A stretch of DNA of 64,000 bases from a virus (IMGVR_UViG_3300025133_005699:32001-96000); one strand, 5' to 3'. Numbered from the stretch's first letter, positions 34,768-53,243 are shown. The notes: generated by a model not told the origin, from the sequence alone. Translations and numbers: made by a program.

Positions 34768-34800
34768 AAAGCCCTTCACTCGCGTGTGGGGCTTTTTTTT
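34768..34800 (+). terminator. Rho-independent terminator of the structural arm
   Basis: AAAGCCCTTCAC-TCGC-GTGTGGGGC followed by T8. Confidence 0.85.
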
Positions 34801-34806
34801 ATGCAC

Positions 34807-34842
34807 AAAAAAACCCCGCCCAAGAATTAACTTGAGCGAGGT
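34807..34842 (-). terminator. Rho-independent terminator of the replication/glycosylation arm
   Basis: On the - strand: ACCTCGCTCAAG-TTAATT-CTTGGGCGGGG followed by T7. Confidence 0.85.
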
Positions 34843-35970: not shown

Positions 35971-36741
35971 TCAACAAATCTCCAATTCAATAAGTCTTTT
36001 GTTCTTAGATGGGAATTTTTTCTCTACTTGCTGAAGAACAGGTTCAACAAGTTCCCACAACCTTCTACCAACCGAACGGGTGAACGTAGGGCATAGGTAC
36101 TTTACTCTAATTACACAATAGCCTCTTTTGACAAGAACGCCATTCTTAATTATATCGTGTTTTACATAACCCCGTAACATCTTTTCTCCAAAAACTGGCT
36201 CAAAGTGTTGGGGCCCATCTACCTCTATTATAGTCGAAAGCTCGGGCAAAAACAAGTCCATTTCATATTTTGTACCTTCTATTAGGTCTTTTTTATGAAG
36301 GATAACTTCCCTGCCTGATGCGTGAATTTTTTCATAAAGGAGTCTTTCGGGCTTTGAACCTTCCTTGATTGTTAGCAATAAAGCTTTAGCCGCCTTACTG
36401 CGTAACTCCTCCTTGTCGTGGTCAGACATGTTTTCCCATTGCTCTTTAGCAAGGGCAGATCTGCGTTTACGTTCTTTTTTTGGCAAGTCCGCCCACGCCT
36501 TTTCCAGACTGATACTAATTTTATCTTTAACCTTTTCGGTTCTAGTCTTTCCCTTTGTTGGGTGGGAATGTCTACCAGACTTTAAAGCCTCTTTTTGAGC
36601 CTCGCTTTTGCTGCGTAACTCAACACCATTAGATATTAACACTCTGCGTATTTTATTGGGATACGTGTCAAAGTTATCTGCAATGGCTTTCGTGCTTAGG
36701 TTATTTTTTGTATACATTTCTATTACTGTTTTTACGTCCAT
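35971..36741 (-). CDS. Homing-type endonuclease: HTH + NUMOD3-like + DUF559/Vsr-like domain
   Basis: KGKTRTEKVKDKIS (NUMOD3-like), SKPE, YEMDLF, IEVDGPQH, GYCVIRV. Confidence 0.7.
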   Translation of the reverse strand: MDVKTVIEMYTKNNLSTKAIADNFDTYPNKIRRVLISNGVELRSKSEAQKEALKSGRHSHPTKGKTRTEKVKDKISISLEKAWADLPKKERKRRSALAKEQWENMSDHDKEELRSKAAKALLLTIKEGSKPERLLYEKIHASGREVILHKKDLIEGTKYEMDLFLPELSTIIEVDGPQHFEPVFGEKMLRGYVKHDIIKNGVLVKRGYCVIRVKYLCPTFTRSVGRRLWELVEPVLQQVEKKFPSKNKRLIELEIC

Positions 36742-37193
36742 AGTATTTTCTCCATTTTCTCCATATCCCAGTCATCAACGATGCCTGCGACTTTTTTGTT
36801 AGAGTAGTTTTCAAACAGCTCCTTGTGGGAGTAGCTTCTAGTTATTATATTAAGTTCCGGGTTTCTTACAACAGATGAAACATAGTTAAAGTCCATCGGC
36901 TTCCTTAACCATTCTAAGTCCCATAGGTATAGGAATTTCTTGGCATTATTCTTTGTCTTTATCATCATGTTCGCACAATCAACACTTGTCGCAATCGCGA
37001 CCCCATCAAATTTAGCATAATAAGAAATATTCATACATGCGAAAAATGGTGTTATTGGAGCCGCACTTAATGTGCTATAAAAACACATAGGTGAACAGTC
37101 CGTATCCTCCTTCATTTTATTAAAAGCCTTTATAAGGTAATAAGACTCTTGTGAGGTTGACAGTGTTTCAATTATCGCCGCTATCTTTTTCAT
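36732..37193 (-). CDS. Stand-alone GT-B N-terminal-like half domain
   Basis: 153 aa; GVAIATS...KKFLYLWDLEW...IITRS. No C-terminal nucleotide-binding half. Confidence 0.45.
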   Translation of the reverse strand: MKKIAAIIETLSTSQESYYLIKAFNKMKEDTDCSPMCFYSTLSAAPITPFFACMNISYYAKFDGVAIATSVDCANMMIKTKNNAKKFLYLWDLEWLRKPMDFNYVSSVVRNPELNIITRSYSHKELFENYSNKKVAGIVDDWDMEKMEKILWT

Positions 37194-37951
37194 GCTAGTA
37201 TTTTGTTCTTCCAGTAAGAGAATGACAATTTATTAAGTTTATATTCTTTGGTTTGCATGTCCTTGTATTCTTTTTTAAGTCTATCCTCTGTGACTTCATT
37301 CCAGTCCTCGATAAACAACACAGGCAAACCTTCTAGGCACTCATGAGTTATGTATTTTTTAACGATAGGAATACACCCAAGATACAGGGCCTCCCATATT
37401 CTATGTGTATCTATTCCGTTTCCTCTTGGGCACAGGCAAAAAGCATACTCTCTCAAGTGATTGACATATCTTTCAAAATTTTGTCCGTTTATAGATAGCC
37501 CATAGTCTGCAAAAACTGTTCCTAAGTGCAATTTGTGCAATAAATCGTGCCTCTCTTCATGTGTCGATGGGTTAAACTGGGTAAAAGCCCGCACCTTTCT
37601 ATTGCCTAAAAGTGGGGCGTTTTTCATTATATTTCTTTTTTGAGGGTGCCAGTGGTTATTCTCTAATCCAATGGGCAGAGGGCGGACTCTAGGGTGCTTA
37701 AAACCGAGGTTTTGAGCATACCAAACAACTAAATTATCGGGCACTTTACACTCTTTTATCTCTACATCACTATTATGTGTTAACAGCTTAAACTGACTGT
37801 CTGGATGCCTGACAATAAAATCCAATACCTCTTCATGATTATCAGAGGCTGTGTACATTAAAGACACGCTTTTTTTTGGAATTTTTTCACCAAATTTAAA
37901 ATCACATGTATTTTTAAACTTTTCTCCGTCTACCTCATCTATAGGGTACAT
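37190..37951 (-). CDS. Exostosin-like (GT47-like) glycosyltransferase
   Basis: THNSD, PLPIGLEN, FCLCPRGNGIDTHRIWEALYLGCIPIV. Confidence 0.75.
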   Translation of the reverse strand: MYPIDEVDGEKFKNTCDFKFGEKIPKKSVSLMYTASDNHEEVLDFIVRHPDSQFKLLTHNSDVEIKECKVPDNLVVWYAQNLGFKHPRVRPLPIGLENNHWHPQKRNIMKNAPLLGNRKVRAFTQFNPSTHEERHDLLHKLHLGTVFADYGLSINGQNFERYVNHLREYAFCLCPRGNGIDTHRIWEALYLGCIPIVKKYITHECLEGLPVLFIEDWNEVTEDRLKKEYKDMQTKEYKLNKLSFSYWKNKILA

Positions 37952-38622
37952 CCGTACACTCCTGCTGTGCTTAACTGGCTACATAGATATGGATTGGTGT
38001 GCCAAACCTTTAGTTTGTTTTCTTTAAAATGATAGTTAAGTTCCCAATCAATAGAAGTACATATCGTGGTGAATGTACCGAGAACCTTCTCCGCCGCACT
38101 TCTTGTTAGGGCATAGGAAGATGTACAGTTAGTGGCGGGATGGTCAACGAGTAATAGGTTTCTATAAGATCCGCAAACCCTATCGGCAACAAGGTTGTGG
38201 TCAAAACCCCCACCAAAGAAGAGAGCATCATGAGGAACCCCTTCTGCCGTATGTAGAGAATCAATAATATCTTTTTTGGTTCCGTGAAAAACAACATCAT
38301 CTTCCAAAAAGACTGCGTTGTCATAACCAGAAGATACCAAGTCTTCCATACATTTTATATGTTTTATACATAAAGATATATGTCCCATTGTCGGTCCTTT
38401 ATATCCGTCGTAATCGACCTCCTCATACATACCTAAAGTTCTCTCTTTAAAGAGATCTAAATTAATATTGCAGTATGTGTCGATGACGGCTTCTGATAAT
38501 TCATTTTTATCATAGTCAGTATACCATGTGGCGTCAATTTCCATCTCCTCTAGAATAGGCTCTAGCCTAGCTCGCCGCTCAACGTTCTTTTTGTAGTGCA
38601 TAACATAAAATTTTGTCTTCAT
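37939..38622 (-). CDS. GT25-like glycosyltransferase
   Basis: YVMH...ERR, SLCIKH, VFLEDD, TSSYALTRSAA, IDW. Confidence 0.75.
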   Translation of the reverse strand: MKTKFYVMHYKKNVERRARLEPILEEMEIDATWYTDYDKNELSEAVIDTYCNINLDLFKERTLGMYEEVDYDGYKGPTMGHISLCIKHIKCMEDLVSSGYDNAVFLEDDVVFHGTKKDIIDSLHTAEGVPHDALFFGGGFDHNLVADRVCGSYRNLLLVDHPATNCTSSYALTRSAAEKVLGTFTTICTSIDWELNYHFKENKLKVWHTNPYLCSQLSTAGVYGCTL

Positions 38623-39780
38623 TTATACCATCCTGTTGATTATAGAACAAATTCTCTTAATGTCTTTATGTCTAAGGTCTTGGTGATTGGGAATATACAT
38701 TCCGTATTTTTCCACAATGTTCGCATTGACCATCGGCTCTTCCCCATAGAGGTTGACCCATGCTGGCTGAAGACCCATGCTACCAGCTACAAGAGGGCGA
38801 CACTCAATTTTTTTATTGTTTAACTCCCTGTAAACTTCTTGCTTGTTTTCCAAGATAAGAGGAAAACCCATGTTAGATATAACCTCTTGAGTTGTCTTCG
38901 GCTTTGGAAACCAGATTTTTTGATTTAAGTTATTACAATAAGCGTAATAGTTTTCCTCGCGTGTTTTTGATATGTGATTTATTTTAGGTATCTGATTAAG
39001 ACCTATGAAGGCCTGTAGATCGGTTGCCCTCAGGTTGAATCCTGCATAGTAGAATTTATACAGCGAATCAAAATCGTCCACCCCATATTTCTGTCTGTAT
39101 TTTTCTTTAGAATCTTGACTTAAGTCTCTATCCCAGCCGTGACTTCTAATCATCTTTACAACGTCCGCAAAATCGCTATTATCGGTACAAACCATTCCCC
39201 CTTCAATAGTTGAAATGTGGTGGCCAAAGTAAAACGAAAACGAGCTAGCAAAGCCAAACGTGCCAAGCATCTTGCCGGACGTTCTAGATCCTAAGCTCTC
39301 GCAGGTATCCTCAATTACCAGTATATCGTTCTGGTCGCATATTTTGATAATCTCTTCTATAGAGGAGTCAAGACCCAATACATGTACGAGCATAACCGCT
39401 GCGGGCTGTTCTTTAATTATAATCTCTTTTAGATGATTAACATCTAGCCCCAAGTTTTTCATATTGCAGTCACAGAGGATCGGCTCTAAACCAAACTGTA
39501 TAGCAGGAAAGATAGTTGTTGACCAAGAAACCTGTGGGACTACTATCTTGGAGTTTCTAAGAAGTCCCATCTGCTTGAGGGCGGACACTATTAAAAGATT
39601 TGCCGAAGAGCCAGAATTACAATATACGGAGTGTTCACATCCTAGATATTCGGAGAACTTTTCCTCGAACTCTAGCGTCTTAGCTCCTTTTGTTAATTGA
39701 GGCATTTTTCTTAGCCAGCCGATAAGAGAGTTTATATCCCTTTCGTCTATAATGTCTGAACATAGTTTAATTGGTTTCAT
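38623..39780 (-). CDS. colD: PLP-dependent GDP-4-keto-6-deoxymannose 3-dehydratase (ColD-type, DegT/DnrJ family)
   Basis: NSGSSANL, EDTCESLG, and SFYFGHHISTIEGG with His in place of the Schiff-base Lys. HGWDR lacks the Cys cluster of the E1/RfbH Fe-S enzyme. Confidence 0.8.
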   Translation of the reverse strand: MKPIKLCSDIIDERDINSLIGWLRKMPQLTKGAKTLEFEEKFSEYLGCEHSVYCNSGSSANLLIVSALKQMGLLRNSKIVVPQVSWSTTIFPAIQFGLEPILCDCNMKNLGLDVNHLKEIIIKEQPAAVMLVHVLGLDSSIEEIIKICDQNDILVIEDTCESLGSRTSGKMLGTFGFASSFSFYFGHHISTIEGGMVCTDNSDFADVVKMIRSHGWDRDLSQDSKEKYRQKYGVDDFDSLYKFYYAGFNLRATDLQAFIGLNQIPKINHISKTREENYYAYCNNLNQKIWFPKPKTTQEVISNMGFPLILENKQEVYRELNNKKIECRPLVAGSMGLQPAWVNLYGEEPMVNANIVEKYGMYIPNHQDLRHKDIKRICSIINRMV

Positions 39781-40703
39781 AGCTCTAGCACCGTTTTGAA
39801 TTTCTCCAATAGGAACTCTGGGTTAGCACAGTCGGGAATTTTGTTGTCTGGAAAACATGGCTGACTCTGAATCTCTTGGAACAGGTCAGGTTTATTATAT
39901 ATACCAAGAACGGCCTCGTTTAGTTCATCTATATTGTTAAATCTTCTAGCATGAATGAAGGCGTCCTCATTAAATTCTTCACCCACATCTGGACAGCCCC
40001 AATATATTGGTATTACCCCTTTAGATAGTGGATGTATTAGTTTTTCAGTTATCCACCCGTCAGCCTCACCATTATCAAAACATAGGTTAAACTTAAAGTC
40101 ATTAATATACTCTAGCTTGTCTTTTTCATCTCCTCCTATAGAGGGCATATTTGTAAAGGCTCGACCTCTACTTTCTACCAAAAGGCCGTTCTCTACGCCG
40201 AACCCTATGAACTCAGGGTACACTTCGGCTCTCAGCGCCATATCGTTATTTGTTAATACACAGCAGAACTTTTTCTTTTCCGTGTAGTCGGGAGGATTTA
40301 GCAACAACTCTGGTGAAACAAGAAAGGCTTGGTTCCTTCCTTGAACATATTGGTTTCCAAACCAGTCTACATACATAGCCCATAGTGGTATTCGCACGTT
40401 TCTATTATCGTCAAACTTGCAGGACGAAAAAGAGAAATCGCAGCTACTGTAGTCTGGGTCTCCCGTTCTATCAATTGACTCTACGAGCCAGTGGATAATC
40501 TTAGCTCGCCCCTTCATTCCATCCGTTAGGCTTGCTGCCGACGGAGACTGATGATCTGGCGGAGAGCTCTGGCAAACGATAATGTCTGGATTGTTTTCAT
40601 CAACAATAACATTATATTCTAATGACAGAGTGTTGGTGATTATGTTGTCATGCTTAAAGAAGCCGCCCCACATGTTTTTAAAATCTATTTTTATCTGCTT
40701 CAT
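39777..40703 (-). CDS. GT10 (alpha-1,3/4-fucosyltransferase-like) glycosyltransferase
   Basis: KKKFCC, KLEYINDFKFNLCFDN...GWITEKL...IPIYWG...FNEDAFI. Confidence 0.8.
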   Translation of the reverse strand: MKQIKIDFKNMWGGFFKHDNIITNTLSLEYNVIVDENNPDIIVCQSSPPDHQSPSAASLTDGMKGRAKIIHWLVESIDRTGDPDYSSCDFSFSSCKFDDNRNVRIPLWAMYVDWFGNQYVQGRNQAFLVSPELLLNPPDYTEKKKFCCVLTNNDMALRAEVYPEFIGFGVENGLLVESRGRAFTNMPSIGGDEKDKLEYINDFKFNLCFDNGEADGWITEKLIHPLSKGVIPIYWGCPDVGEEFNEDAFIHARRFNNIDELNEAVLGIYNKPDLFQEIQSQPCFPDNKIPDCANPEFLLEKFKTVLEL

Positions 40704-41524
40704 TTTTCAATCCTTTTAAACATATATTCCGCAAGCCTTTCTGGAGAACAAAAGTGTTCGTACCACAGCTTGGCGGCATTAGAATGGTATTCCAACACCT
40801 CTTCTTCTCTTCCTAAGATGAAGTCTACTGTTCTAGTCAGCTCTGCCCATCCAGCGTCCATTGGGAACGCCGGAGCTGCGTTATACATTGGGGTTTGTGG
40901 CATCCCCACATTTATTACTATACACCCCGCGCACATAGCTTCAAAAAATCTAAAGCTTTCTTTGCTACCCGAGCCAATGGGTACCAACGCTATCTTGGTA
41001 TCATTCATCACATCGCAGTAGCTGTCTATAGCATCTCCGTTATTCCAGCCCTCATACCACAGGACATGACTATTGTAATTTGGTCGCTCGCCCTGTAATC
41101 TGTCTACAGCCTGTCTAAAGTTCACCCTAGTATAGGGATCAAACTGGCCCATCCAAGACCAGTCTTTTGTCCTTTTCGTTATTGGGATGTCTTGGTTGAC
41201 AAACCCTTCGAGGCAACCTAAGGGCAATGGGCTAACTCTATTTATGTTCTTTACCGATGTCTGGTCTGTAGGTGTTCCCATAGGTGCGTACTGCTTGAAT
41301 ATGTGCACATACGAGTCATCCTGTGTTTGGTCAGGAACATTGTGTGCCTCATCTGATGTAGATATTAATATTTTTGGATACTTTGTTTCTTTCGGCATCT
41401 CATGATTCCATACCTGCAAGATAAAAGAATAATCATTTTTCAGCTTCTTGGATAGTATCTCGACAGCCTCTTGATACACATAGCTGTCCGGATTTTGTTC
41501 AATAAGGTTAATTATTTCAGACAT
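40700..41524 (-). CDS. Exostosin-like (GT47-like) glycosyltransferase
   Basis: STSDE, PLPLG, KIALVPIG..ESFRFFEAMCAGCIVI. Confidence 0.65.
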   Translation of the reverse strand: MSEIINLIEQNPDSYVYQEAVEILSKKLKNDYSFILQVWNHEMPKETKYPKILISTSDEAHNVPDQTQDDSYVHIFKQYAPMGTPTDQTSVKNINRVSPLPLGCLEGFVNQDIPITKRTKDWSWMGQFDPYTRVNFRQAVDRLQGERPNYNSHVLWYEGWNNGDAIDSYCDVMNDTKIALVPIGSGSKESFRFFEAMCAGCIVINVGMPQTPMYNAAPAFPMDAGWAELTRTVDFILGREEEVLEYHSNAAKLWYEHFCSPERLAEYMFKRIEK

Positions 41525-42380
41525 CTATAAAACCCTCCAAGTTTTTACTATGTACATGTAGATTAAAAATTGGGTGTTTCATTCCATCTGACCCAATGGC
41601 ATATGGCTTATCTGTAAACTCTGCCCCTATTTTATTATTTCTAAGTAGCGCGCCTATCATATGTTTAGGGTCTGTAAACCCAGATTCATGCCCGTTATTT
41701 GTACCTCCTAAGTATTGGCCATAGGAGCCGGGATCAAACACGAAGTCCTTTTCTCCAATTTCAGGTACCGTCTTGAAGGCTTCAAACATCTCACACTTGT
41801 GAGCCACATGCAGGAGCGACATTTCGCTTACGTGATCAAATCCAAACTTGTTTATCAGTACCTGCTCCCCAAGAGCCAGCACCTCGTTTAAAAACTTGCA
41901 TAGATAAACAATGAGTACAGGCATTGGAACGTGGACAAAAGCAAACGTAACTTGATCGACTGACATTGGTGTAAGGCTTATCCTGTTAGACTGTGGAACG
42001 CCCTCAAGGTCGTGATATAAAAGAACATCATTTTCAAAGTGAAAGACATCGTACAGTCTATTCTTGTCTATATACTCACTGAGATAGTATATTCTTTCAC
42101 AGGTTCTATGCCAGAACAGCTCAGGGCTAGGGTGGGTCGTGTTAGGCGTTCCGTGTCTTTTAAACCAGCACAGGTTGTTAAATTCTTTAAGGGTGGTGCC
42201 ATCCTTTAGTGAGTCCTGAGGAACCCAGTTTACATCAATATCTTTAAAAAATGGCTGGTCATCTTTACATATAAAATCTATAGTAACGTCAGGATTTGTC
42301 TTGCGAGCTTGCGCTAGTGAAATTTGTGTATATGCCGGTAACTCTCCGCCATCTGAAATAAATGTATTAACTATTCTCAT
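41517..42380 (-). CDS. Putative GT-A fold glycosyltransferase
   Basis: FWHRTCERIY, FHFENDVLLY, SEM, FDPGSYGQYLGG, NLHVHSK. Likely start MRIVNTF at 42380. Confidence 0.55.
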   Translation of the reverse strand: MRIVNTFISDGGELPAYTQISLAQARKTNPDVTIDFICKDDQPFFKDIDVNWVPQDSLKDGTTLKEFNNLCWFKRHGTPNTTHPSPELFWHRTCERIYYLSEYIDKNRLYDVFHFENDVLLYHDLEGVPQSNRISLTPMSVDQVTFAFVHVPMPVLIVYLCKFLNEVLALGEQVLINKFGFDHVSEMSLLHVAHKCEMFEAFKTVPEIGEKDFVFDPGSYGQYLGGTNNGHESGFTDPKHMIGALLRNNKIGAEFTDKPYAIGSDGMKHPIFNLHVHSKNLEGFIDV

Positions 42381-43152
42381 TCTGAAATATACCCCTCTCT
42401 TTATCCCCTGAGTGTTCAAGCTTCCCGCCAATAGCCTCCACATACCAGCTGTGTTTTAATATCCATCGCATATCGTTCTCTTTTTCTGTTTTGTCGGTAG
42501 CTTTCAAATGCTGTATAGCTTTAGAAAATATTTTATACTCATTATTAGCATATTTAAACTGTAGACTGTTCTTTTCGATCTCTTCGTTGGCTATAAAAAT
42601 CGCATCTACTCCCGACGCCGCCACTAAAGTGTACCCCATCCAGTTCAATAGATCTTTTGCTGCCGTTATGCTGCAACCATAGCGGCTGTCGCCAGACCAG
42701 ACCCAATCTTTTCGGTGGATTTGTATTATAGTGCGAGGAGGAGGGATTTCCGGATTAAACTCTATGGATACCACTCTAGGTTTAAATTTTTCCAAATCCA
42801 CGCTTCCAGCTACCCAGAAATCCTCTCCATCAATATCTATGGATAAAAAATCAAATACTCTCGGAACCTTGTACTTTTCTAGCAGCTCATTTATGTTTTC
42901 TGCGGAAACAAACTCATTTTTTAGATCATAAATAGCCTCTGGGTTTTCTGTGCCGTCCATTAGTAAGCCGTCAAACCCTAGAGTTTTTCTTAGGTAGATA
43001 GAGTTACCCCGTCCTGTATCTGTGCCATTTGATCCAAACTCAACAAAATACTTGTTGGTAACACCTATTAGTTCAAAAATTTTCTCCAAAATACCATCTT
43101 GGTAAAATTGTGAAAAAACACGCTTCTCAAAATTAAATAAATTTATTTCCAT
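42367..43152 (-). CDS. FkbM-like SAM-dependent methyltransferase
   Basis: FSQFYQDGIL, FVEFG, GLLMDG, FDFLSIDIDGEDFW, PRVVSIEFN. Confidence 0.75.
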   Translation of the reverse strand: MEINLFNFEKRVFSQFYQDGILEKIFELIGVTNKYFVEFGSNGTDTGRGNSIYLRKTLGFDGLLMDGTENPEAIYDLKNEFVSAENINELLEKYKVPRVFDFLSIDIDGEDFWVAGSVDLEKFKPRVVSIEFNPEIPPPRTIIQIHRKDWVWSGDSRYGCSITAAKDLLNWMGYTLVAASGVDAIFIANEEIEKNSLQFKYANNEYKIFSKAIQHLKATDKTEKENDMRWILKHSWYVEAIGGKLEHSGDKERGIFQNENS

Positions 43153-43153
43153 G

Positions 43154-45721: not shown

Positions 45722-46760
45722 CTATATGCTCCTTTGCTTGATTCCAACCTTTTATAATGTCTTGGGCTTCTTGCTCGCAGCCAAAATAGCTTAATATTTG
45801 AGCAATTCGATGAAAGTTCGTATGGTTATCCAAGATGAATTGCCTTCCTGTGGTTGCAATTTCTTTTCTCTCGTCATCATGAGATAGATAATAATCAATC
45901 TTCTCTTTAAAGTCGTCTGGCGAATCAGCAAAAACAACCCCGTTACCGTTGAAGATTTTACTTATCCCCTCTATATTATCAGAGATACAGAACCCTCCGG
46001 CACATAATATCTTGAAGCACCTCTCATTAATATCAAACCCAAACTCGTGAGCGTGGGGCTCGCTTAGGTTTGGGCAAATTTTTGCAGAGACAAATAAGTC
46101 TTTGGCCTTTTCGTCTGCTAAATATCCGCAATATTGGTTGGCATTGGGCCAAGGTTGATTTCCAAATATTTTGACGTTATATTTATCAATGGGGTGTAGC
46201 AGGGGGGTAAGATACCTATCTATAATGATACCTTTATATGGCCAGTAACCACCAAGAAAGCCTATATCGCAAGAAAGACCTTCGTCAAACGTTGGAGTAA
46301 CATACTCATGTACATTTGCACACATTATGAGTGATTTAGCATCAACACCTATCGATTTGAACTTTGAGTGTGTTTGGTCTACAGCGCACTGGTCGTAATG
46401 GATATGTACAAAGTCTGGCTTGCCCGTCTCATCTTTAAGTTTCTTTAGTATATCTTTTTCTTTCTCTGAGGAATACAGGACATTAAATCTAGGGTCTGCC
46501 TCAAAGTCTCCCCAATCTCCGGCTCTTAGCCCGACTTTTAAGTGAGGTCTTTCGTATATACATTTAATTAGTGGTGAGTCTAAGTTATAAGACTGCCCTA
46601 AGAAGATATCTGGCTCGAAAGTATCAAACGCATCAAAAGCTGAAACTTCTTTGCAATGCCAAAAAGAGGCCTCAATGCCACACTCATTGAAAGCCCTTAA
46701 CCAAGACTGTCTCTGGAAGTAGTGGGCGTGGAGTCCGTCACTAGCAATTAAAATTTTCAT
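45714..46760 (-). CDS. CgeB-like GT-B glycosyltransferase
   Basis: DIGFLGG, SAKICPN, DINERCFKI..AGGFCISD, YYLSHDDERKEIA..G...HT..HR. Confidence 0.7.
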   Translation of the reverse strand: MKILIASDGLHAHYFQRQSWLRAFNECGIEASFWHCKEVSAFDAFDTFEPDIFLGQSYNLDSPLIKCIYERPHLKVGLRAGDWGDFEADPRFNVLYSSEKEKDILKKLKDETGKPDFVHIHYDQCAVDQTHSKFKSIGVDAKSLIMCANVHEYVTPTFDEGLSCDIGFLGGYWPYKGIIIDRYLTPLLHPIDKYNVKIFGNQPWPNANQYCGYLADEKAKDLFVSAKICPNLSEPHAHEFGFDINERCFKILCAGGFCISDNIEGISKIFNGNGVVFADSPDDFKEKIDYYLSHDDERKEIATTGRQFILDNHTNFHRIAQILSYFGCEQEAQDIIKGWNQAKEHIDV

Positions 46761-47451
46761 TCTTTATATCCTTCATACAGTCTATTTCAACGATAGACAT
46801 ACTGTCTGGTTCGTAAACTTTTATAGTTCCACCTCTACTTATTATAGAGTTAATAACCTCAAAAGCCAACAGTGTTTTTGTTTCGTTGGCTGCTTTTGAG
46901 CAAATTTGCCGCAGTATAGCAAACTCTTTTCCTGTCAAGAAAGCGATCTGGCACCACTTGGTGTCTAGCCCGTAAGATAATATGCTCGCTTTGTTATTAA
47001 CAACGGTAACTCCAACCTCTTTCTCTCTCATCTTATTCTTATTGTCTACGACAATGAATGACTTAGAAAAGTCTGCTGAGTTGATGGTTTTAATATCAAA
47101 ATATAAATCCCCATGAAAGAACAAAACACTATTACTGGTTATATTGTTTACTATTAGCCTTAGAGTTTCAAAAGGCCCAGTCGTATCATGTAATTGGTTT
47201 TCTACAAACCTGACTTCGCCGGGGAATTTTTTAAGTATTCTATTTGCTTCTACCCCTATACCAACCACAATCTCGGGCTCGTGAAAAATCGAATTCACTG
47301 TGTCTAGCTGGTGTTGCAATAAAAACTTTGGCCCAACCTTAAGTAAGGCTCTAGGCTCATGGGACTTTATCCTGCTACCTGTTCCGGCAGATAAAATGCC
47401 GACGCTGGTATCAAGAGGTTCCTTCTTTATTTTTTGTGTAAATCTACTCAT
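46741..47451 (-). CDS. Sugar/choline-phosphate nucleotidyltransferase-like protein
   Basis: ILSAGTGSRIKSHEPRALLKVG, FFHGDLYF, VEIDC. Confidence 0.7.
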   Translation of the reverse strand: MSRFTQKIKKEPLDTSVGILSAGTGSRIKSHEPRALLKVGPKFLLQHQLDTVNSIFHEPEIVVGIGVEANRILKKFPGEVRFVENQLHDTTGPFETLRLIVNNITSNSVLFFHGDLYFDIKTINSADFSKSFIVVDNKNKMREKEVGVTVVNNKASILSYGLDTKWCQIAFLTGKEFAILRQICSKAANETKTLLAFEVINSIISRGGTIKVYEPDSMSIVEIDCMKDIKNENFNC

Positions 47452-48247
47452 CTCTAGAGTTTATTTTCTCCATATTGTCTGCAAATATACTTTGCGTCAT
47501 TCTCATAGATTGATTCTGTCCTGTTTCTCTAACAAAAGATAAGGGTTGTGGGACATGAACCATCATGCAAACTCTTGAGAGCCTAAGCCACAAGTCGTAA
47601 TCTTCTGTGCATCCAATAAAGCCCTGAGATGCTGGGCCATGTAAATTACTATCATAAAATTCCTTTTTTTCTGGTAGCAGTATTGCCTGTAAAAATCTTT
47701 TCTTTATAACCCCAGCACTATGAACTATACACTGTTCGTGTAGTCCCCTTAGAGAGTATGGGTGTTTATACTCATATTTTTTATAATCATTACCATTATA
47801 AGTTTTATGTATAATATAGTCAGAATATGTAACCCCAAAATCCTCGTGCTCCATCAGCTTTTCAACCTGTATAGATATTTTATTGTGAGCATACATATCA
47901 TCGGCATCTAATATAGCAAAAACATCAGCCCATTCCCAAGCCTCCCAGATGGCCACGTTTCTTGCCGTGCTGGCTCCAGAATTATTAATCCTAAAAGCTG
48001 TCAGTCCATCCATCTCTCTATACTCAATTGGGCCATCGTAGTAAGGGGTATGCAAGACCTTTTTTGACATTGAGCTTGCGGTAAATGGAGATATCTTTTC
48101 CCAAGAATCGTCAGAAGAGCCGTCGTCTACAACAAAAACTCTTAGCTCTCCTTTGTAGTCTTGATCTAAAGCGCTATGTATAGCCTCCAAAACAAATTCT
48201 CCATAATTGTAGTTGCTTATTATGACAGCGACCTTAGGCAGTACCAT
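47444..48247 (-). CDS. GT2 glycosyltransferase
   Basis: VIISNYN, VVDDGSSD, GASTARN, LDADD, EDYDLWLR. Likely start MVLPK at 48247. Confidence 0.9.
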   Translation of the reverse strand: MVLPKVAVIISNYNYGEFVLEAIHSALDQDYKGELRVFVVDDGSSDDSWEKISPFTASSMSKKVLHTPYYDGPIEYREMDGLTAFRINNSGASTARNVAIWEAWEWADVFAILDADDMYAHNKISIQVEKLMEHEDFGVTYSDYIIHKTYNGNDYKKYEYKHPYSLRGLHEQCIVHSAGVIKKRFLQAILLPEKKEFYDSNLHGPASQGFIGCTEDYDLWLRLSRVCMMVHVPQPLSFVRETGQNQSMRMTQSIFADNMEKINSRDE

Positions 48248-49043
48248 TAATGAACTCCTCCCACTCACAAATACAGTCTGGGTTCTCAGAAACCATAAGC
48301 TCAACCTTTTCAATAAAGTTGATTCTAACCTTTTCTTTAGTCTTCGGGTCTACCACATCTTTATCCCCGTGGAGGAATTTATATATAGCAGTCTGAAAAA
48401 TCATACCGTTCATTTTTTTGTATGGTTTAATCAGAGCGAGCCGCTTCATGTCGATATTCATTCTATTGTCTATTTTTTCAAACAGGTTTTCTGGAACATC
48501 TTCACCAGAAGTTGTCACAAAAATCCAACCATTCTTAGCGTGTCTAAACGCTTCACCTATCATAAACAAATCCATCTGACCGACGAGACTCAATACAATA
48601 TGGTATTCTGTTTCTTCAAAGTCAAACTCGCTGGCAAGCAGTGCTTGTATCTCCTCATTATATTCAACATTAGCGTTGATAACCACTATGTAGCGAGGAG
48701 TACCTCTTGTTTGGCTCTTTATCTGCGCAACCGTATGACGAAGATCTATCATGGCGTTTTTAGATCTAGTGTCTAAAAATACAAAAATTCCAATACGAGG
48801 AAAAACCTCTCTAAGGACCGTTTGTTTTAAATTCTTCTTCTCTTCTTTAGACAAAACCTTCTTCCATTCTTTGGGTCTATAGGTATTACAAAATCTACTA
48901 AAAAGAAAATCAAACTTACCGTCTTCAGTTTTTCCAGTTTTTTCTGGGTTCAGCAGTTCTATCCTATTTAACTTGCACCCGGTTTGCTTTTTATTTCTAT
49001 ATTCAGCAAATACGCAACCCTTGCAGTGTGTTTCAATTTGCAT
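48234..49043 (-). CDS. Hypothetical protein with Cys-rich N-terminus and degenerate GT-A-like region
   Basis: HCKGCVFA..TGC..RFCN, then PRIGIFVFL..PRYIVVIN..KNGWIFV with no DxD. Confidence 0.45.
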   Translation of the reverse strand: MQIETHCKGCVFAEYRNKKQTGCKLNRIELLNPEKTGKTEDGKFDFLFSRFCNTYRPKEWKKVLSKEEKKNLKQTVLREVFPRIGIFVFLDTRSKNAMIDLRHTVAQIKSQTRGTPRYIVVINANVEYNEEIQALLASEFDFEETEYHIVLSLVGQMDLFMIGEAFRHAKNGWIFVTTSGEDVPENLFEKIDNRMNIDMKRLALIKPYKKMNGMIFQTAIYKFLHGDKDVVDPKTKEKVRINFIEKVELMVSENPDCICEWEEFINGTA

Positions 49044-49470
49044 TATTGTTTCTCCTTGCTGTTATAACTACTTGCATTGTTTCATTATTGATGAACTGTT
49101 CTTCTATCGTTAGCCCCATTTGCTTCAGGCTTTCTCCTAATGTTTCTGCATTCAGGACGGAGGCTATCGAGCTAGATGTATCAAACAATAAGTCATTTAT
49201 ATCCTGAACATCCATTCCCATCTTGTTGTAATGGTGACATATGATATCTATATCTTTTTCATAGATAATTATTCTGCCGTTAATCCTAAGCTTTGACACA
49301 ATCTTACTCAATACAGATCCAAGCTCAGAACGTGGAAAAGAGGTGAGCATTGAGTCTATGATGATTTCTGTGGACTCTGAATCATCAACAAAAAGATCAA
49401 TTGATGATATATCGCTCACCCATATATGATTTGACTCAGAGGGTTTTCTATTAGACAATATAATTTTCAT
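49033..49470 (-). CDS. Degenerate class I methyltransferase-like protein
   Basis: VDDSESTEII...VLSKIVSKLRINGRIII..KD...L..MGL. No GxG SAM motif. Confidence 0.5.
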   Translation of the reverse strand: MKIILSNRKPSESNHIWVSDISSIDLFVDDSESTEIIIDSMLTSFPRSELGSVLSKIVSKLRINGRIIIYEKDIDIICHHYNKMGMDVQDINDLLFDTSSSIASVLNAETLGESLKQMGLTIEEQFINNETMQVVITARRNNNAN

Positions 49471-49472
49471 GT

Positions 49473-50495
49473 TTATTTCCTGTAGTTTTGTATAACGTTA
49501 AAAAACTGTTTGTTCCAACCCTCAACGAATCGGTCTAGACTGAACTCATTTACAATTGTAGTCTTTGCATTGTCTCCCAACCTTCTGGCTTCGTCAGGAT
49601 TGTTAAGGAGATACTCGCAATGCTCTCTAAGCTCTTCTGGAGTGTTAGCGAGCAGTCCGTTCTCTTCGTGTTGTACAATTTCTGGTATCATACAGTTGTT
49701 GGTACTAACGATAGCGCACCCGCAAGCCATAGCCTCCATCAATACTGTTGGTACGGGAGAGTGGATAGACGTGTTCAAAAATATAGAAGATTTCTTGTAC
49801 CCTTCTCTTAGGGCCTCAAGACTAGGAGCAGGCTCAGATAATCCGGGACTGCTGCCAAACACCCTTATAGGTAGCTGGTCAGGAGAGTTGAACCTAACTG
49901 TTTGCTGCCATAGGTTCCAGCCACAACACCAATCTCTATTTGGCCAATCGTTGACTACGGATATACAAACATTTTCGCGGTCATATAAATCGCCACCGCC
50001 CCAAAAATCAGTATCTATCCCGTGTTCAATAAAAGAGGTAGTTTTGGATAAATTTTTCCCCCACTCTTCCATATTGTATCGAGATATAAAGCTGTCATGA
50101 TCGACTTCAATAGCATTAAAACCAGCCACCTGAGAATGAACATCAAATCGAATATCCGGTAAAACATGCGTATGTCGCAAGATAGGTATATTGAAAAGCT
50201 GTTGAATTTGTTTGGCAGTCATGATTCTCTCACAGCTCGTATGACAAAGAATTAAATCAAAGTTAATATGCCAAGGCACGATATCAATCTCTTGATAGTT
50301 TGCGGGAATTAAGCCATAGTCTGTATTCCATGTTTTTCCATGATTCATAGAATAGAAATTATGTCCTGTCTTACATAGACCCTGCTCGTATCTTTCATGT
50401 GTGCAAAACGTCAATATATTAAGAGTGTCTCCTTCGCTCAGGGCAGACCTTCTCATTATAGACCTTATAGACTGCTGGCTAGCGGTACTACTCAT
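49473..50495 (-). CDS. GT4 (GT-B) glycosyltransferase
   Basis: HGIDTDFW, IFLNTS..SPVPTVLMEAMACGCAIVST, ENGLL. Confidence 0.85.
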   Translation of the reverse strand: MSSTASQQSIRSIMRRSALSEGDTLNILTFCTHERYEQGLCKTGHNFYSMNHGKTWNTDYGLIPANYQEIDIVPWHINFDLILCHTSCERIMTAKQIQQLFNIPILRHTHVLPDIRFDVHSQVAGFNAIEVDHDSFISRYNMEEWGKNLSKTTSFIEHGIDTDFWGGGDLYDRENVCISVVNDWPNRDWCCGWNLWQQTVRFNSPDQLPIRVFGSSPGLSEPAPSLEALREGYKKSSIFLNTSIHSPVPTVLMEAMACGCAIVSTNNCMIPEIVQHEENGLLANTPEELREHCEYLLNNPDEARRLGDNAKTTIVNEFSLDRFVEGWNKQFFNVIQNYRK

Positions 50496-51594
50496 ATAGC
50501 AACTCCTTTAACTTTTTACCAATACATTTTATATCGTATTCTCCAGCCTTAGCTATGGAATCATCTTTTTTGGTATTGTATTCTTTTGGGTTGTTCTTAT
50601 AGGTCTCATAAGCCACCCTCATTGTAGAGCACAGCGACTCCAAGTCTGGCTCCATCCATCTGGTAAGCGATGTATACACACTATCCATCGAATCTGTTGC
50701 CATGTAACATGGGGCCGGAGACGATTGGACTTTCCACCCCACACAGAAATCATCCATACCAGTATTAGCCGTATGTATAACAGGTATGCCCATAGCCATA
50801 GACTCTAGTGCCGGTATACACCAAGCCTCTCCAAAACTAGGCATAACAAAACAATCGCACTTACCCATCAGTGAGTGTAAGTGTCTACTTTCCAGATGCC
50901 CCGTTATGGTGATTTCTTTTCTGTAGTTCTTTCTTATTTTAAGGGATCGCCTTACATTGTCTGAAAGGGTCTCGAAATATTTGAGCGTTTCATCGTGACT
51001 GTATCCCGGCTTACTTAGCTTTAAGAATAGGTTGACAGGCTCTGAGGGGTGAAACTCTGTGTGAAAAGCTCGTAACAAAGTTTCGATATTTTTTCTCTTA
51101 ATCATCTCTCCGACAAAGCAGAAGTTAAAACATCCTTTAAACTCCCCTACGCTTGCACAGTCTTCTATATTTTGGTAATCTTCTATAGGTAAGCACAGAG
51201 GTGCTAACTTAACAGGAGTCGTTACTCCGCTTTTCTGAGAGGCCGTTATCATCTGGTTGTTAGGAACCCACGCTTCGTCAAGCAGGTTTATGTACTTGTG
51301 CCACATGGTTTCTGAAAAGGTCGCCGTTTCGGTATAGAAGATGCCTATGTTTTTAAAGCTCGAATTATAAGAGTACAACGGCGGAAGTGTGTGCTGAATG
51401 CAAACATCTACACCTTGTTCGCTCTGGCTTTCTAGCTCCGCAATTCTTTGGTTGCCAGTATTGTGTGAATCGTTAAAGGTAATAGCTCTAGGCACAACAT
51501 TTACTCCAGCAGAATCTAAAGCTAATATATTGTTGGCGCAAGCATTTCCCCAACCCGTCCTATCGTTATAGTTTCCTATATAGAGAACTTTCAT
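50488..51594 (-). CDS. GT4 (GT-B) glycosyltransferase
   Basis: TGWG, DEAWVPN, RKNIETLLRAF, DCFVMPSFGEAWCIPALESMAMG. Confidence 0.88.
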   Translation of the reverse strand: MKVLYIGNYNDRTGWGNACANNILALDSAGVNVVPRAITFNDSHNTGNQRIAELESQSEQGVDVCIQHTLPPLYSYNSSFKNIGIFYTETATFSETMWHKYINLLDEAWVPNNQMITASQKSGVTTPVKLAPLCLPIEDYQNIEDCASVGEFKGCFNFCFVGEMIKRKNIETLLRAFHTEFHPSEPVNLFLKLSKPGYSHDETLKYFETLSDNVRRSLKIRKNYRKEITITGHLESRHLHSLMGKCDCFVMPSFGEAWCIPALESMAMGIPVIHTANTGMDDFCVGWKVQSSPAPCYMATDSMDSVYTSLTRWMEPDLESLCSTMRVAYETYKNNPKEYNTKKDDSIAKAGEYDIKCIGKKLKELLYE

Positions 51595-53243
51595 CGCTGC
51601 CCTCCCTGAATTTTATTAGCCCTAATTTTTTCCCACTCATTATGCATCTCTCTCATTTTAGCCATGTGGGTATATGCCAAATTGACATCAAACTTACCCC
51701 AATTTCTTATATTGTTGTTAAGGTGTGATTCATTGAAATAGAAATCAACATTTGTACTACTAGCGGTACACTTATACGTAATGTCCCTTAGTGTTCTTTT
51801 CCACATATGGTTTCCAACCCAGTCTGGTCTTCGTAGAACATGATTAAAGAGGAAATCTACCTGCTCTTTGACGCTAAGGTTTGGCGGGATTTCAGTAGCA
51901 GATGGTAGTATTCTTGGGGCAGAAAACCATGTCTCGGCGTGATTTCTAACTGGCGTCTTATCAAAATAATCCGCCCATTTGCTCGCAGTATCATCCCAGT
52001 TATATCGAGAAAGCGTGCGCTGTCTCATGTTGTAGCCCGCCTGTTTACGTTTCTCATCGCTGGTATTGTAGAGGTCAGTAATATGCTGTAGCGCTACGCT
52101 GTTGTCTGGGATAGCTCTATTGCAGCCAGTCTCACATTCCATTTGAAGGTAGCTTACCGGAACCTTGAGAGCCCCAATATTGTCTGCGACAGACTGCATA
52201 GCGGAATAGTCAACGGTAATGACGGGAACTCCCGACTGAGACGCTTCTAATTGGGGCATCCCGAACCCCTCACTATTTGCATATTGTATATATACATCAA
52301 ACAGGCTATATATTTGCGCAAGCTCATCTCTTTCTATTTTATTGTTTATACCAACGAGCTCTCTTGTGAAATTTGCACATTGATAGCAATGGTTGATAAC
52401 GTCATTAAAAAATGAGGTATTAATATGGCCGCACTTCTTACATCTATACGTAAATAAAACCCTATTGGTCAGCCCATACTCTTGAAGAAGCTGAGGTATT
52501 TCCCACCCAATATCAGGATAAGATGTGTGGCAGTAAAGATATGCGTTTGGGGCATCGTTAGAGTCTAGAAACTCCCTGAATGTTTTGAATAAGTCTGGAA
52601 ATAATTTTCTTCGCTGGTTCCTCATTACCGTACCAAGAATAAACGAGTCTTCAGCTAGCCCAAAATTTAATTTATGCGAGATCTTGTCATGAACAATATC
52701 AAACTCCTGACTGGCACAGGGAGATGCTATATCTATAAAGTTCAAATCTTGACATTGCCCCAAGAGAACATCTTTGCCGAACTCGGAGTACGCAAACACG
52801 GCGTCTGCACTAGCGAAGGTATCCATCCACTGGTTATTCTGAGGGGCGGCGTCTACTGTCGGCATTATACACCAATGAAAGAAGTCTCGAAATGGCGTTC
52901 TTTGTTGGAATTCAAACATCCACCAGTCCCGTATGTCCACAACAAAGTCCGGCATAAAGTCTAACAAGACATGATTGAAGGTATACTCACCAAATTCATA
53001 TGATGGCTGTGATTTATACTCATGCCATTCTGGGCTATCTTTTACGGGCTGGTTTGGAAATATAGTCCAGTTGCAGTTCTTGGCCTCTTTATTTGCTCTT
53101 GCTTGGTCTACATAACAGGCAAGCTCGGCAACCTCAAATCTAGGGTCTACACTCAGGCGAGAAAGAACCTCTTTTGTGTATACAGAATATCCTGTAGGCA
53201 AGAAGTGTCCCTCTGAGCAAAAAAGTATTTTTTTACGTCTCAT
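51591..53243 (-). CDS. GT4 (GT-B) glycosyltransferase with zinc-ribbon insertion
   Basis: TGYS, MRNQRRK, CKKC-x14-CYQC, SEGFGMPQLEA. Confidence 0.88.
   Translation of the reverse strand: MRRKKILFCSEGHFLPTGYSVYTKEVLSRLSVDPRFEVAELACYVDQARANKEAKNCNWTIFPNQPVKDSPEWHEYKSQPSYEFGEYTFNHVLLDFMPDFVVDIRDWWMFEFQQRTPFRDFFHWCIMPTVDAAPQNNQWMDTFASADAVFAYSEFGKDVLLGQCQDLNFIDIASPCASQEFDIVHDKISHKLNFGLAEDSFILGTVMRNQRRKLFPDLFKTFREFLDSNDAPNAYLYCHTSYPDIGWEIPQLLQEYGLTNRVLFTYRCKKCGHINTSFFNDVINHCYQCANFTRELVGINNKIERDELAQIYSLFDVYIQYANSEGFGMPQLEASQSGVPVITVDYSAMQSVADNIGALKVPVSYLQMECETGCNRAIPDNSVALQHITDLYNTSDEKRKQAGYNMRQRTLSRYNWDDTASKWADYFDKTPVRNHAETWFSAPRILPSATEIPPNLSVKEQVDFLFNHVLRRPDWVGNHMWKRTLRDITYKCTASSTNVDFYFNESHLNNNIRNWGKFDVNLAYTHMAKMREMHNEWEKIRANKIQGGQR

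Follow-up and report, generated by a model that had tools for sequence, protein, structure and literature searches.

Within the window, the 64,000-nucleotide stretch of viral DNA analyzed here, positions 36732 to 53243 of the minus strand hold 19 intact open reading frames (ORFs) encoding proteins of 145 to 550 amino acids, among them at least 10 to 12 glycosyltransferases (GTs), weaker candidates included. This island splits into a ten-gene core and a hypervariable distal cassette. The split, the spread of the island over 30 contigs, its low dN/dS, the location of a GMD gene in the packaging operon, and the absence of priming, polytopic, and ThyA genes are the new observations of this study. 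We put the chances at about even that the island encodes a cytoplasmic pathway of glycan assembly with virion proteins as its most likely acceptor.

An intact glycosylation island continuous with the replisome operon

Matches in Pfam, NCBIfam, and the PDB bear out the proposal, made in an earlier note on this DNA, of a cluster of glycosylation enzymes. The GT families are GT4 (three genes), GT2, a CgeB-like GT, GT10, GT25, a GT47-like GT, and a GT-A-fold protein; the non-GT members are a ColD-type 3-dehydratase, an Fcl/ColC-type enzyme, a nucleotidyltransferase, and an FkbM methyltransferase. The earlier count of 17 mostly overlapping genes was right about the overlap, since nearly all ORFs abut or overlap by 4 to 26 nt, and too low in number by our annotation of 19. 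The island is also phage encoded, as had been claimed: the 105.8-kb IMG/VR virus record to which the window belongs encodes terminase, portal, capsid, and tape measure proteins, and its terminase is at most 26% identical to that of any cultured phage.

Directly upstream, on the same strand, lie genes for a sigma factor, SSB, a split DnaE, exonuclease, primase, and helicase, in agreement with the placement first described. The sigma-70 region-2 factor gene (53233 to 53712, minus strand; Pfam Sigma70_r2, 3.1e-10) shares 11 nt with the first GT4 gene and, according to a presence/absence matrix, occupies this position in only part of the clade. A strong terminator-like hairpin (34813 to 34842, minus strand), with a 12-bp stem, 7 GC pairs, and a T-run, ends the leftward replisome-island operon and opposes the terminator of the tail operon (34774 to 34791, plus strand). 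The island is transcribed with the replisome operon and not with the late operon, and no enrichment of a late-promoter motif was found within it. A T4-gp1-like dNMP kinase is encoded near the island, and a GT11 gene is present elsewhere in the genome.

The layout of the island recurs in 30 viral contigs assembled independently, a complete 148-kb genome among them. We give next to no probability to an artifact, be it a passenger region in decay or a misassembly that joins phage DNA to a bacterial polysaccharide locus. Gene order and the flanking replisome and tail genes are the same in all 30 assemblies, one of which is closed by terminal repeats, and this rules out a chimera with a bacterial contig; GC skew and strand run on unbroken from the replisome operon into the island. 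Decay is ruled out by the intact ORFs and by a dN/dS of 0.03 to 0.12 against a close relative, L098. Neither of these outcomes, which the earlier note had named as fatal to its reading, therefore holds. In our best explanation, which as a whole we rate at roughly even odds, the clade with the island would be a large group of uncultured marine phages of ~140 to 150 kb with long tape measure proteins, and the island would be its vertically inherited hallmark.

A conserved ten-gene core

Beside the replisome, the core runs in the order three GT4 genes, h145, h269, GT2, nucleotidyltransferase, CgeB-like GT, Fcl, and the GT-A gene h295. It is kept in the relatives examined, including all four related near-complete genomes (one complete, with terminal repeats), and persists across deep divergence at 44 to 50% identity. 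Among the best 120 of 2,578 clusters, the core seems to be phage-only.

The first core gene encodes GT4c (51591 to 53243), a 550-amino-acid GT-B glycosyltransferase (Pfam Glycos_transf_1) with an invariant Cys4 insertion (C268/C271/C286/C289; alignment A2) and a helical C-terminal extension of ~120 amino acids. Its AF2 model has a pLDDT of 85, its top PDB match is chlorovirus NY2A B736L (3oy2), and its relatives in metagenomes comprise 2,578 protein clusters; GT4c is a candidate for the initiating enzyme. It is followed by GT4b (50488 to 51594; Pfam Glycos_transf_1, 9.2e-15), found at 29 of 30 loci, and GT4a (49473 to 50495; Pfam Glycos_transf_1, 1.7e-18). The h145 protein (49033 to 49470; 27 orthologues) has no Pfam match; its Atlas clusters are virus only, and feature-level similarity (0.90 to 0.91) hints weakly at small methyltransferases. 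The 269-amino-acid protein h269 (48234 to 49043), which has an N-terminal cluster of invariant cysteines (C7/C10/C23/C52), gave no match in a PDB profile search; feature-level Atlas GT2 clusters (0.90 to 0.91) offer a lead that it is possibly GT-A/GT2-like.

The GT2 gene (47444 to 48313; Pfam Glycos_transf_2, 2.7e-17) was probably called from the wrong TTG start; given orthologues of 257 to 278 amino acids, translation probably begins at the ATG near 48250. Next come a MobA-like sugar-phosphate nucleotidyltransferase (46741 to 47451; Pfam NTP_transf_3, 1.9e-10), whose further matches are weak and of GlmU/IspD type only, and the best-conserved core gene, that of the CgeB-like GT-B glycosyltransferase (45714 to 46760; Pfam Glyco_trans_1_2, 1.1e-27). 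Homologues of the latter, 47 to 95% identical, are carried by 30 viral contigs, and it had no match among 50,697 phage records. The Fcl-type GDP-4-keto-6-deoxymannose epimerase/reductase (44735 to 45721) matches NCBIfam GDPFucSynFcl at 2.8e-83, under the curated cutoff, and GDP-fucose synthases in the PDB at 1.6e-60. At the boundary with the variable part, the 295-amino-acid protein h295 (43873 to 44760) has no family annotation; its AF2 model (pLDDT 85) folds as a GT-A glycosyltransferase, with Foldseek matches to TarP, SpsA, and GnT-I (E value, 8e-8). Its identity to the L098 protein is 50%, compared with 94 to 99% for neighboring genes; the h295 allele has been swapped between near-identical phages.

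A hypervariable distal cassette

Comparison of the relatives shows that the distal cassette is exchanged among them. Over 26 loci its size ranges from 1 gene to at least 11, and ~50 families are represented. Clade-wide, cassettes contain further GTs, methyl- and sulfotransferases, aminotransferases/dehydratases, and extra GMD copies. A Pfam tally of 92 variable-region proteins gave GT47/RXYLT1 (12), FkbM (8), other methyltransferases (~7), DegT (5), GT10 (4), GMD, sulfotransferase, GT8, GT25, and GT2 (3 each), and FdtA (2).

The cassette of this phage includes ColD, ColD-linked GT10, GT25, GT47-like, and FkbM genes. Following h295, the variable part encodes a DUF6492 protein (43154 to 43876; Pfam DUF6492, 4.4e-6; 8 loci) and an FkbM-type methyltransferase (42367 to 43152; Pfam Methyltransf_21, 1.1e-5) found only in genome G000 and in L098. 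The 308-amino-acid protein h308 (41517 to 42443) has no match in Pfam or NCBIfam; its eight orthologues have 284 to 297 amino acids, and its true start is probably near 42380. A weak GT-B/RXYLT1-like protein (40700 to 41524), with 14 orthologues, matches Glyco_trans_1_2 (0.0019) and RXYLT1_C (0.0034) in Pfam, both under the cutoff.

The GT10 fucosyltransferase-family enzyme (39777 to 40703; Pfam Glyco_transf_10, 2.7e-13) belongs to the ColD-linked one of two clades in the GT10 tree (support, 100/100; ColD-linked 4/4, ColD-less 6/6), which makes it a candidate colitosyltransferase. The neighboring gene encodes a ColD-type PLP/PMP sugar 3-dehydratase of the DegT family (38623 to 39780), which matches ColD in the PDB (2gms; E value, 1.9e-59) and has RfbH as its top NCBIfam match, under the cutoff. 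In this enzyme, a histidine replaces the usual PLP lysine and aligns with His188 of ColD (2gms; H188N mutant, 3b8x). The GT25 enzyme (37939 to 38622; Pfam Glyco_transf_25, 5e-6, 27 bits against a cutoff of 24) and the GT47/RXYLT1-like enzyme (37190 to 37951; RXYLT1_C, 1.1e-9, and Exostosin_GT47, 3e-9, both over the cutoff) follow. The last gene, h153 (36732 to 37193), encodes a conserved protein without a Pfam match and lies at the island's distal end or just inside it; orthologues occur in 8 loci, and those of L117 and G006 fall within the variable region.

Sugar-nucleotide synthesis and a proposed assembly route

The phage has its own set of nucleotide-sugar genes: GMD, the Fcl-type enzyme, ColD, and the nucleotidyltransferase. 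GMD lies outside the window, ~60 kb from the island; a comparison of three genomes places it at the head of the packaging operon in every one. The Fcl-family enzyme is a single-copy core gene that is present also where ColD is absent, and it would have to act additionally as ColC where ColD is present. These assignments support a predicted capacity to make GDP-fucose or GDP-colitose, as well as methylated sugars.

In the proposed route, GMD would form GDP-4-keto-6-deoxymannose, from which Fcl would make GDP-fucose, and Fcl with ColD a GDP-colitose-type 3,6-dideoxyhexose. An inner glycan would be assembled by the core enzymes, with nucleotide sugars as the direct donors, and the cassette enzymes would add strain-specific, partly methylated outer sugars. 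The likeliest acceptors would be the phage's own Ser/Thr-rich head-fiber and tail proteins, on the model of chloroviruses, Megavirinae, and mycobacteriophages, so that each strain would acquire its own glycan coat.

No membrane, export, or priming components

Kyte-Doolittle scans (19-residue window) of the island proteins gave maxima below 1.9 throughout, with no convincing transmembrane helix, as the earlier note had stated. Only two maxima exceed 1.6: one comes from a borderline segment inside h308, the other from an N-terminal stretch of the GT2 protein that is probably a product of the wrong start; the GT2 protein has no C-terminal transmembrane segment. The lack of a flippase, Wzy, or initiating transferase, also claimed for the island, extends to a complete genome and several near-complete ones. 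The same scan of G000, G001 (94% complete), and G006 (complete) found no protein with four or more hydrophobic segments besides the tape measure and no flippase, polymerase, ligase, ABC exporter, or polytopic WecA-like protein. None of five genomes has the priming enzyme Bac_transf (PF02397), for which the control gave a signal in 9 of 14. We therefore rejected a Wzx/Wzy- or ABC-dependent O-antigen or capsule locus, which lacks here both a priming phosphoglycosyltransferase and an exporter-type polytopic protein. A serotype-converting gtrABC system (GtrA flippase, membrane-anchored GtrB, polytopic GtrC) was likewise rejected, given a GT2 protein without a C-terminal transmembrane segment and no polytopic proteins in the three genomes.

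Virion proteins and other candidate acceptors

The missing membrane genes make a weak argument for virion glycosylation, because most O-antigen and LOS GTs are soluble or peripheral and the phage could use a host lipid carrier and exporter. Remodeling of the host envelope is the first alternative, one that we consider unlikely while granting it real weight. Soluble transferases at the cytoplasmic membrane face would modify host lipid-linked intermediates, lipid A-core, or teichoic-acid-like polymers, and a host flippase, ligase, or exporter would display the altered glycan, blocking superinfection or keeping progeny off debris. GT25, GT10, GT11, and GT4 are typical LOS/O-antigen families, and all occur in the island or, for GT11, elsewhere in the genome. 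The top fold match of h295 is the wall-teichoic-acid glycosyltransferase TarP, a prophage-encoded enzyme that modifies this host surface polymer. Cotranscription with replication genes and the resemblance of the outer cassettes to O-antigen loci, which are also hypervariable, point the same way, as do homologues of the 3-dehydrase in S-CAM7 and ACG-2014f. Cyanomyoviruses with similar gene sets have been read by their authors, without experiments, as modifying the cell surface (PMC12801897). Against envelope remodeling stand the absence of any priming transferase, flippase, polymerase, ligase, or Gtr-type protein from a complete genome and from near-complete ones and the location of GMD and tailoring genes among head and fiber genes. 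A core that is conserved at 44 to 50% identity and apparently phage-only among the best 120 of 2,578 clusters also fits poorly with dependence on the acceptor of each host.

For virion proteins as the acceptor, the balance comes out near even. The conserved place of GMD in the packaging operon links the pathway to virion genes. In G000, genes for a polysaccharide pyruvyl transferase, a radical-SAM enzyme, and a PRTase adjoin virion genes, with a Gp80-type head-fiber gene and then a 1399-amino-acid protein (25% Ser/Thr) on one side and further Ser/Thr-rich proteins on the other. We count against this acceptor the capsid protein (genome positions 15598 to 16602), which has 11% Ser/Thr and no enriched tract, and the structural proteins, in which Ser-Gly enrichment is only 1.3-fold (z = 4.7). 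The replisome-operon position, the LOS/O-antigen GT families, and the TarP match also count against it. To our knowledge, 12 or more GTs far exceed those of any phage with proven virion glycosylation.

A different cytoplasmic acceptor or product is improbable, be it a free oligosaccharide or polysaccharide, a glycolipid, or a small molecule or host protein bearing sugars; receptor modification on flagellin or pilin and a nucleotide-sugar sink are examples. This reading would accommodate the solubility of every enzyme and the absence of a substrate assignment for several core proteins and the nucleotidyltransferase. A cluster this large would be without precedent in that role, however, and cassette hypervariability points to an exposed, recognized surface and not to a metabolic product.

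DNA, which the earlier note had offered as an alternative acceptor, is very improbable. In that case the transferases would glycosylate modified bases and evade restriction. The nearby dNMP kinase would suit this role, and diverse GTs are known to glycosylate phage DNA (Pyle et al. 2024, as cited in PMC12619734). Yet the ThyA-family hydroxymethylase (PF00303) is absent from four genomes (G000 to G003; the control gave a signal in 10 of 14); a Tet/JBP search gave no match, with an uninformative control. Known DNA glycans consist of one to three sugars added by one to three GTs, whereas the island has at least 12 GTs, along with tailoring by deoxy-sugar, methyl, sulfo, and pyruvyl groups.

A fuller form of the virion reading, to which we give somewhat less than even odds, is that a globally abundant marine clade coats its head fibers and tail with a strain-variable, fucose/colitose-rich glycan bearing methyl, sulfate, or pyruvate, its inner part invariant and built by the ten-gene core, its outer part diversified by cassettes. 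If so, phage "serotypes" would arise by cassette exchange, bacteriophages would have their own equivalent of Megavirinae fibril glycosylation, and recognition of phage particles in the sea would be under strong selection.

Comparison with known glycosylation systems

The GDP-colitose pathway of Escherichia coli O55 and Yersinia (GMD, ColD, ColC) has counterparts here in GMD, a His-bearing ColD homologue, and an Fcl/ColC-family reductase. Unlike in those bacteria, GMD lies ~60 kb away, one Fcl-type core enzyme would supply the ColC activity, and no ManB or ManC was recognized.

Virion O-glycosylation is described for mycobacteriophages Che8, Corndog, and Myrna (Freeman et al. 2023, as cited in PMC12619734 and PMC12801897). 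As related there, these phages share with the island soluble, phage-encoded GTs and methyltransferases acting in the cytoplasm of a bacterial host, but they have few GTs, and their glycans are on the C termini of capsid and tail-tube subunits. Set against those accounts, the island is several-fold larger and includes sugar-nucleotide synthesis, and the capsid protein lacks a Ser/Thr C-terminal acceptor of that type.

The closest published analogues are the glycosylation clusters of chloroviruses and Megavirinae and the "cell-wall" gene sets of cyanomyoviruses. Marine cyanomyovirus sets hold up to 13 GTs (GT10, GT11, GT25, GT2, GT1) with sugar epimerases and dehydratases (PMC12801897), and the 3-dehydrase homologues of S-CAM7 and ACG-2014f are 33 to 36% identical to that of the island. 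Those phages are of an unrelated lineage. The genes here lie in one uninterrupted operon that is divided into core and variable portions.

Chloroviruses encode soluble, early-expressed GTs together with GMD and GMER (PMC5408694). PBCV-1 (GMD, GMER, A064R) resembles the present phage in combining GMD and a GMER/Fcl-type enzyme with a methyltransferase and soluble GTs without signal peptides; early-expressed GT genes would be a further shared trait. The match of GT4c to NY2A B736L, at 14% identity, reflects generic GT-B similarity and not orthology. The approximately six chlorovirus GT genes are scattered, whereas at least 12 in the island form one translationally coupled operon.

Megavirinae have clade-specific glycosylation clusters of 6 to 33 genes (PMC10117803). 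Like the island, their fibril clusters join rare bacterial-type nucleotide-sugar pathways to many GTs, with content specific to the clade or strain, and G000 likewise encodes fiber-type proteins beside its capsid gene. With both of these viral systems the island shares GTs that are soluble, without transmembrane segments by Kyte-Doolittle scan, and a clade- or strain-specific content over 26 loci. Megavirinae are eukaryotic giant viruses whose fibril glycans have been shown chemically, whereas this is a tailed bacteriophage known from its genes alone, and its island, unlike theirs, is laid out as a fixed ten-gene core with one swappable distal cassette.

Gene content of the glycosylation island

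The island at 36732-53243 consists of 19 minus-strand open reading frames, almost all of which abut or overlap by 4 to 26 nt. The gene list drawn up in the earlier note was correct in substance, although its count of 17 genes was too low. Matches above curated cut-offs were obtained for three GT4 enzymes, GT2, Glyco_trans_1_2 (CgeB-like), NTP_transf_3, Epimerase/GDP_Man_Dehyd (Fcl type), DUF6492, FkbM, GT10, DegT, GT25, and GT47/RXYLT1. Altogether, 10 to 11 glycosyltransferases are supported in the island, or at most 13 with weaker candidates, and one GT11 enzyme is encoded elsewhere. No convincing transmembrane segment was found in any island protein, in agreement with the claim that the island lacks membrane proteins.

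The DegT protein is nearest to solved ColD structures (E 1.9e-59) and carries histidine where the PLP lysine is usual; the same residue is altered in the H188N entry 3b8x. Its top NCBIfam match, which falls below the cut-off, is the related 3-dehydrase RfbH. The epimerase is Fcl-like: it scores 280 bits where the equivalog cut-off is 500, and it matches solved GDP-fucose synthases with E 1.6e-60.

PDB profile searches with h269 and h295, island proteins of 269 and 295 amino acids, gave no significant match. The identity of h295 (43873-44760) came from fold search alone: its structure model (pLDDT 85) has TarP, SpsA, and GnT-I as closest folds, and h295 is thereby predicted to adopt a GT-A fold. 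For h269 and the 145-residue h145, weak feature-level leads were all that emerged. The GT4 enzyme GT4c (51591-53243) has an invariant Cys4 cluster inserted into its C-terminal Rossmann domain, and h269 (48234-49043) has an invariant Cys cluster at its N terminus; both clusters may be zinc ribbons. Searches of GT4c by PDB profile and by fold returned generic GT4 matches. A relationship of GT4c to GtfA/Gtf1, which glycosylate serine-rich adhesins, was considered and set aside because the similarity is confined to the common nucleotide-binding motif.

A conserved core and a variable outer cassette

Relatives of the phage terminase occur in more than 597 IMG/VR contigs, with at most 26% identity to any cultured phage. 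The metagenome bins holding such relatives (two Flavobacteriales, one SAR202, and one Lyngbya) are too weak a guide to name a host. A profile of the CgeB-like enzyme matched 30 viral contigs, and in these the order GT4c, GT4b, GT4a, h145, h269, GT2, nucleotidyltransferase, CgeB-like enzyme, (Fcl), h295 is kept at 28 to 97% identity, with the core adjoining DnaE and exonuclease genes. The core is also present in all four related near-complete genomes (G001, 94%; G002, 88%; G007, 92%; and G006, a complete genome of 148,313 bp that has terminal repeats). Comparison with the close relative L098 gave dN/dS values of 0.03 to 0.12 in 16 of the 19 island genes, and the ten-gene core is under purifying selection. 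Because core and gene order are kept in relatives and dN/dS is low, an assembly chimera and gene decay, both of which the earlier note had raised against its own reading, are excluded. Clustering at 90% identity places GT4c in 2,578 protein clusters; all of the best 120 are full length, and Tara Oceans and other marine assemblies contribute many of them. Neither the island (megablast) nor the CgeB-like glycosyltransferase (tblastn) found a match among 50,697 phage records.

Distal to h295, gene content differs between relatives. This cassette ranges from one gene (contig L125) to at least 11, and its 166 proteins from 26 loci form about 50 families. The variable region is almost wholly composed of glycan genes: among 92 representatives, Pfam assignments were GT47/RXYLT1 (12), FkbM (8), other SAM methyltransferases (about 7), DegT (5), GT10 (4), GMD, sulfotransferase, GT2, GT8, and GT25 (3 each), and FdtA and GT32-type (2 each). 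The cassette is exchanged even among near-identical genomes. At its boundary with the core, the h295 proteins of this phage and L098 share only 50% identity amid neighbors that are 94 to 99% identical, a replacement of a single-gene allele by recombination.

ColD is a cassette gene found in only four loci, this phage included. The GT10 tree has two deep clades (100/100 support), one of which adjoins ColD in 4 of 4 cases and the other in none of 6, and the members of each clade are kin, so that the association may represent a single event. This pattern fits use of a 3,6-dideoxy sugar by the ColD-linked GT10, which is a candidate colitosyltransferase.

Genome setting of the island

The window covers positions 32001-96000 of its source record (105,810 bp), which is 65% complete by CheckV. 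On the plus strand of the record is a module for packaging and structure, with a ClpP-type protease, large terminase, and weak major-head-protein match, as well as a tape measure of 3,555 amino acids with a PhageMin_Tail domain; a PHROGs search with the tail and structural proteins gave almost no matches. The minus strand carries helicase, primase, dNMP kinase, PD-(D/E)XK nuclease, split DnaE, and SSB genes, and a sigma-70 region-2 protein is encoded between these replication genes and the island. Neither GC content nor GC skew breaks between the replisome genes and the island. A strong hairpin with a T-run (34842-34813) ends the leftward operon opposite the tail-operon terminator. Within the island, scans for sigma-70-type promoters and terminators gave background levels only. 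The late-promoter octamer was not enriched across the window (8 observed versus 4.7 expected), and the two copies on the minus strand of the island both lie inside genes.

In the split DnaE, the N half (56549-58126) holds the PHP and polymerase core and the C half (54087-55655) the fingers, HhH, and OB fold, and a DEDDh exonuclease gene separates the two; in G006, the C half is apparently split once more. Past the right end of the window, three tandem DUF1501 genes adjoin PhoH (genome 101974-105809) and encode sulfatase/phosphatase-superfamily proteins (E 1e-102 to 1e-114). Hydrophobic segments at the N termini of their G001 relatives suggest that the DUF1501 proteins are exported.

Additional glycan genes are found outside the island. 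A GMD gene (genome 6171-7337; E 1.7e-90 to solved GMDs) is flanked by a second sigma-like gene on one side and the ClpP-type protease and terminase genes on the other, a position shared with G001 and G006. The second sigma-70 region-2-like gene and a gene for a conserved 265-residue protein occupy genome 4872-6169, immediately before GMD, and together with GMD they head the packaging operon in all three genomes. G001 and G003 have a second, divergent GMD within the cassette (L091:1847-2821 and L092:17074-18048), which is 39% identical to the packaging-operon copy and stands beside genes that this phage lacks. The GT11-family enzyme, a short DegT-like protein, and methyltransferases are encoded at genome 612-4148, and relatives of these genes sit inside the cassette of contig L118. 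The short DegT-like family (197 to 237 amino acids; genome 612-1268, L118:19184-19897, and G001 66818-67411) is conserved, and of the aminotransferase fold it spans the N-terminal third only.

A polysaccharide pyruvyl transferase, a radical-SAM/SPASM enzyme, and a PRTase (genome 22542-25850) sit between two groups of likely fiber genes. The first group encodes a Pfam Gp80 head-fiber protein and a 1,399-residue protein with 25% Ser/Thr, and the second encodes further proteins with 22 to 32% Ser/Thr. The Gp80 homologue (podophage GP4 head fiber) and the 1,399-residue protein directly follow the capsid gene (genome 17518-22519). At the corresponding site, G006 has proteins of 2,461 and 2,022 residues, and G001 has none.

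Candidate acceptors of the glycan

As the direct target of glycosylation, the virion proteins of the phage itself rank first, with about an even likelihood, because the pathway is self-sufficient with all enzymes soluble, because linkage ties GMD and the tailoring genes to head and fiber genes, and because chloroviruses and Megavirinae provide precedents. Chlorovirus glycosyltransferases are soluble and expressed early, alongside GMD and GMER (PMC5408694), and Megavirinae glycosylation clusters are clade specific, with 6 to 33 genes (PMC10117803). The proposed absence of a flippase, Wzy, and priming transferase held up: the tape measure is the only protein with four or more hydrophobic segments in G000 (this phage), G001, and the complete G006, and a Bac_transf priming enzyme is absent from five genomes in a search whose control worked. 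No acceptor signature stands out. Ser-Gly is only 1.34-fold over expectation in structural proteins (z 4.7) and at expectation in nonstructural proteins. The S-[G/A]-x-T sequon is not enriched in structural proteins, and the capsid protein has no Ser/Thr tag.

The earlier note had reached the same target from the missing membrane genes. The transferases of LOS and O-antigen synthesis are likewise soluble or peripheral, and therefore that argument does not discriminate between virion proteins and remodeling of the host envelope. The latter is a serious rival, if a less likely one: the island glycosyltransferase families are typical of LOS, and the top fold match of h295 is TarP, which is encoded by a prophage and acts on a polymer of the host. 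Similar cyanomyovirus gene sets have been interpreted in this way by their authors, without experiments (PMC12801897). DNA, offered initially as the alternative target, is left with no glycosylation route of a known kind, as a ThyA-family hydroxymethylase is absent from four genomes while the search control worked. A Tet/JBP search gave no match but was uninformative, since its control gave none either.

Relation to known glycosylation systems

To our knowledge, marine-phage glycan genes are usually catalogued as "LPS/cell-wall" auxiliary genes without test. The clade is a concrete system for asking whether abundant ocean phages bear their own variable glycan coat, and whether the selection behind its variation is nonproductive adsorption, grazing, enzymes, or sticking to particles. 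The island also supplies uncharacterized soluble glycosyltransferases, the candidate colitosyltransferase among them. No earlier description of the clade or island was found in the literature consulted. Giant viruses and a few mycobacteriophages are established cases of virion glycosylation by enzymes that the virus itself encodes. The island belongs with the virus-encoded glycosylation clusters. The closest marine report describes 13 glycosyltransferases as possibly the highest number in a marine phage (PMC12801897). What is distinctive here is that a phage clade abundant in marine metagenomes joins a fixed ten-gene core to a single outer cassette that recombines.
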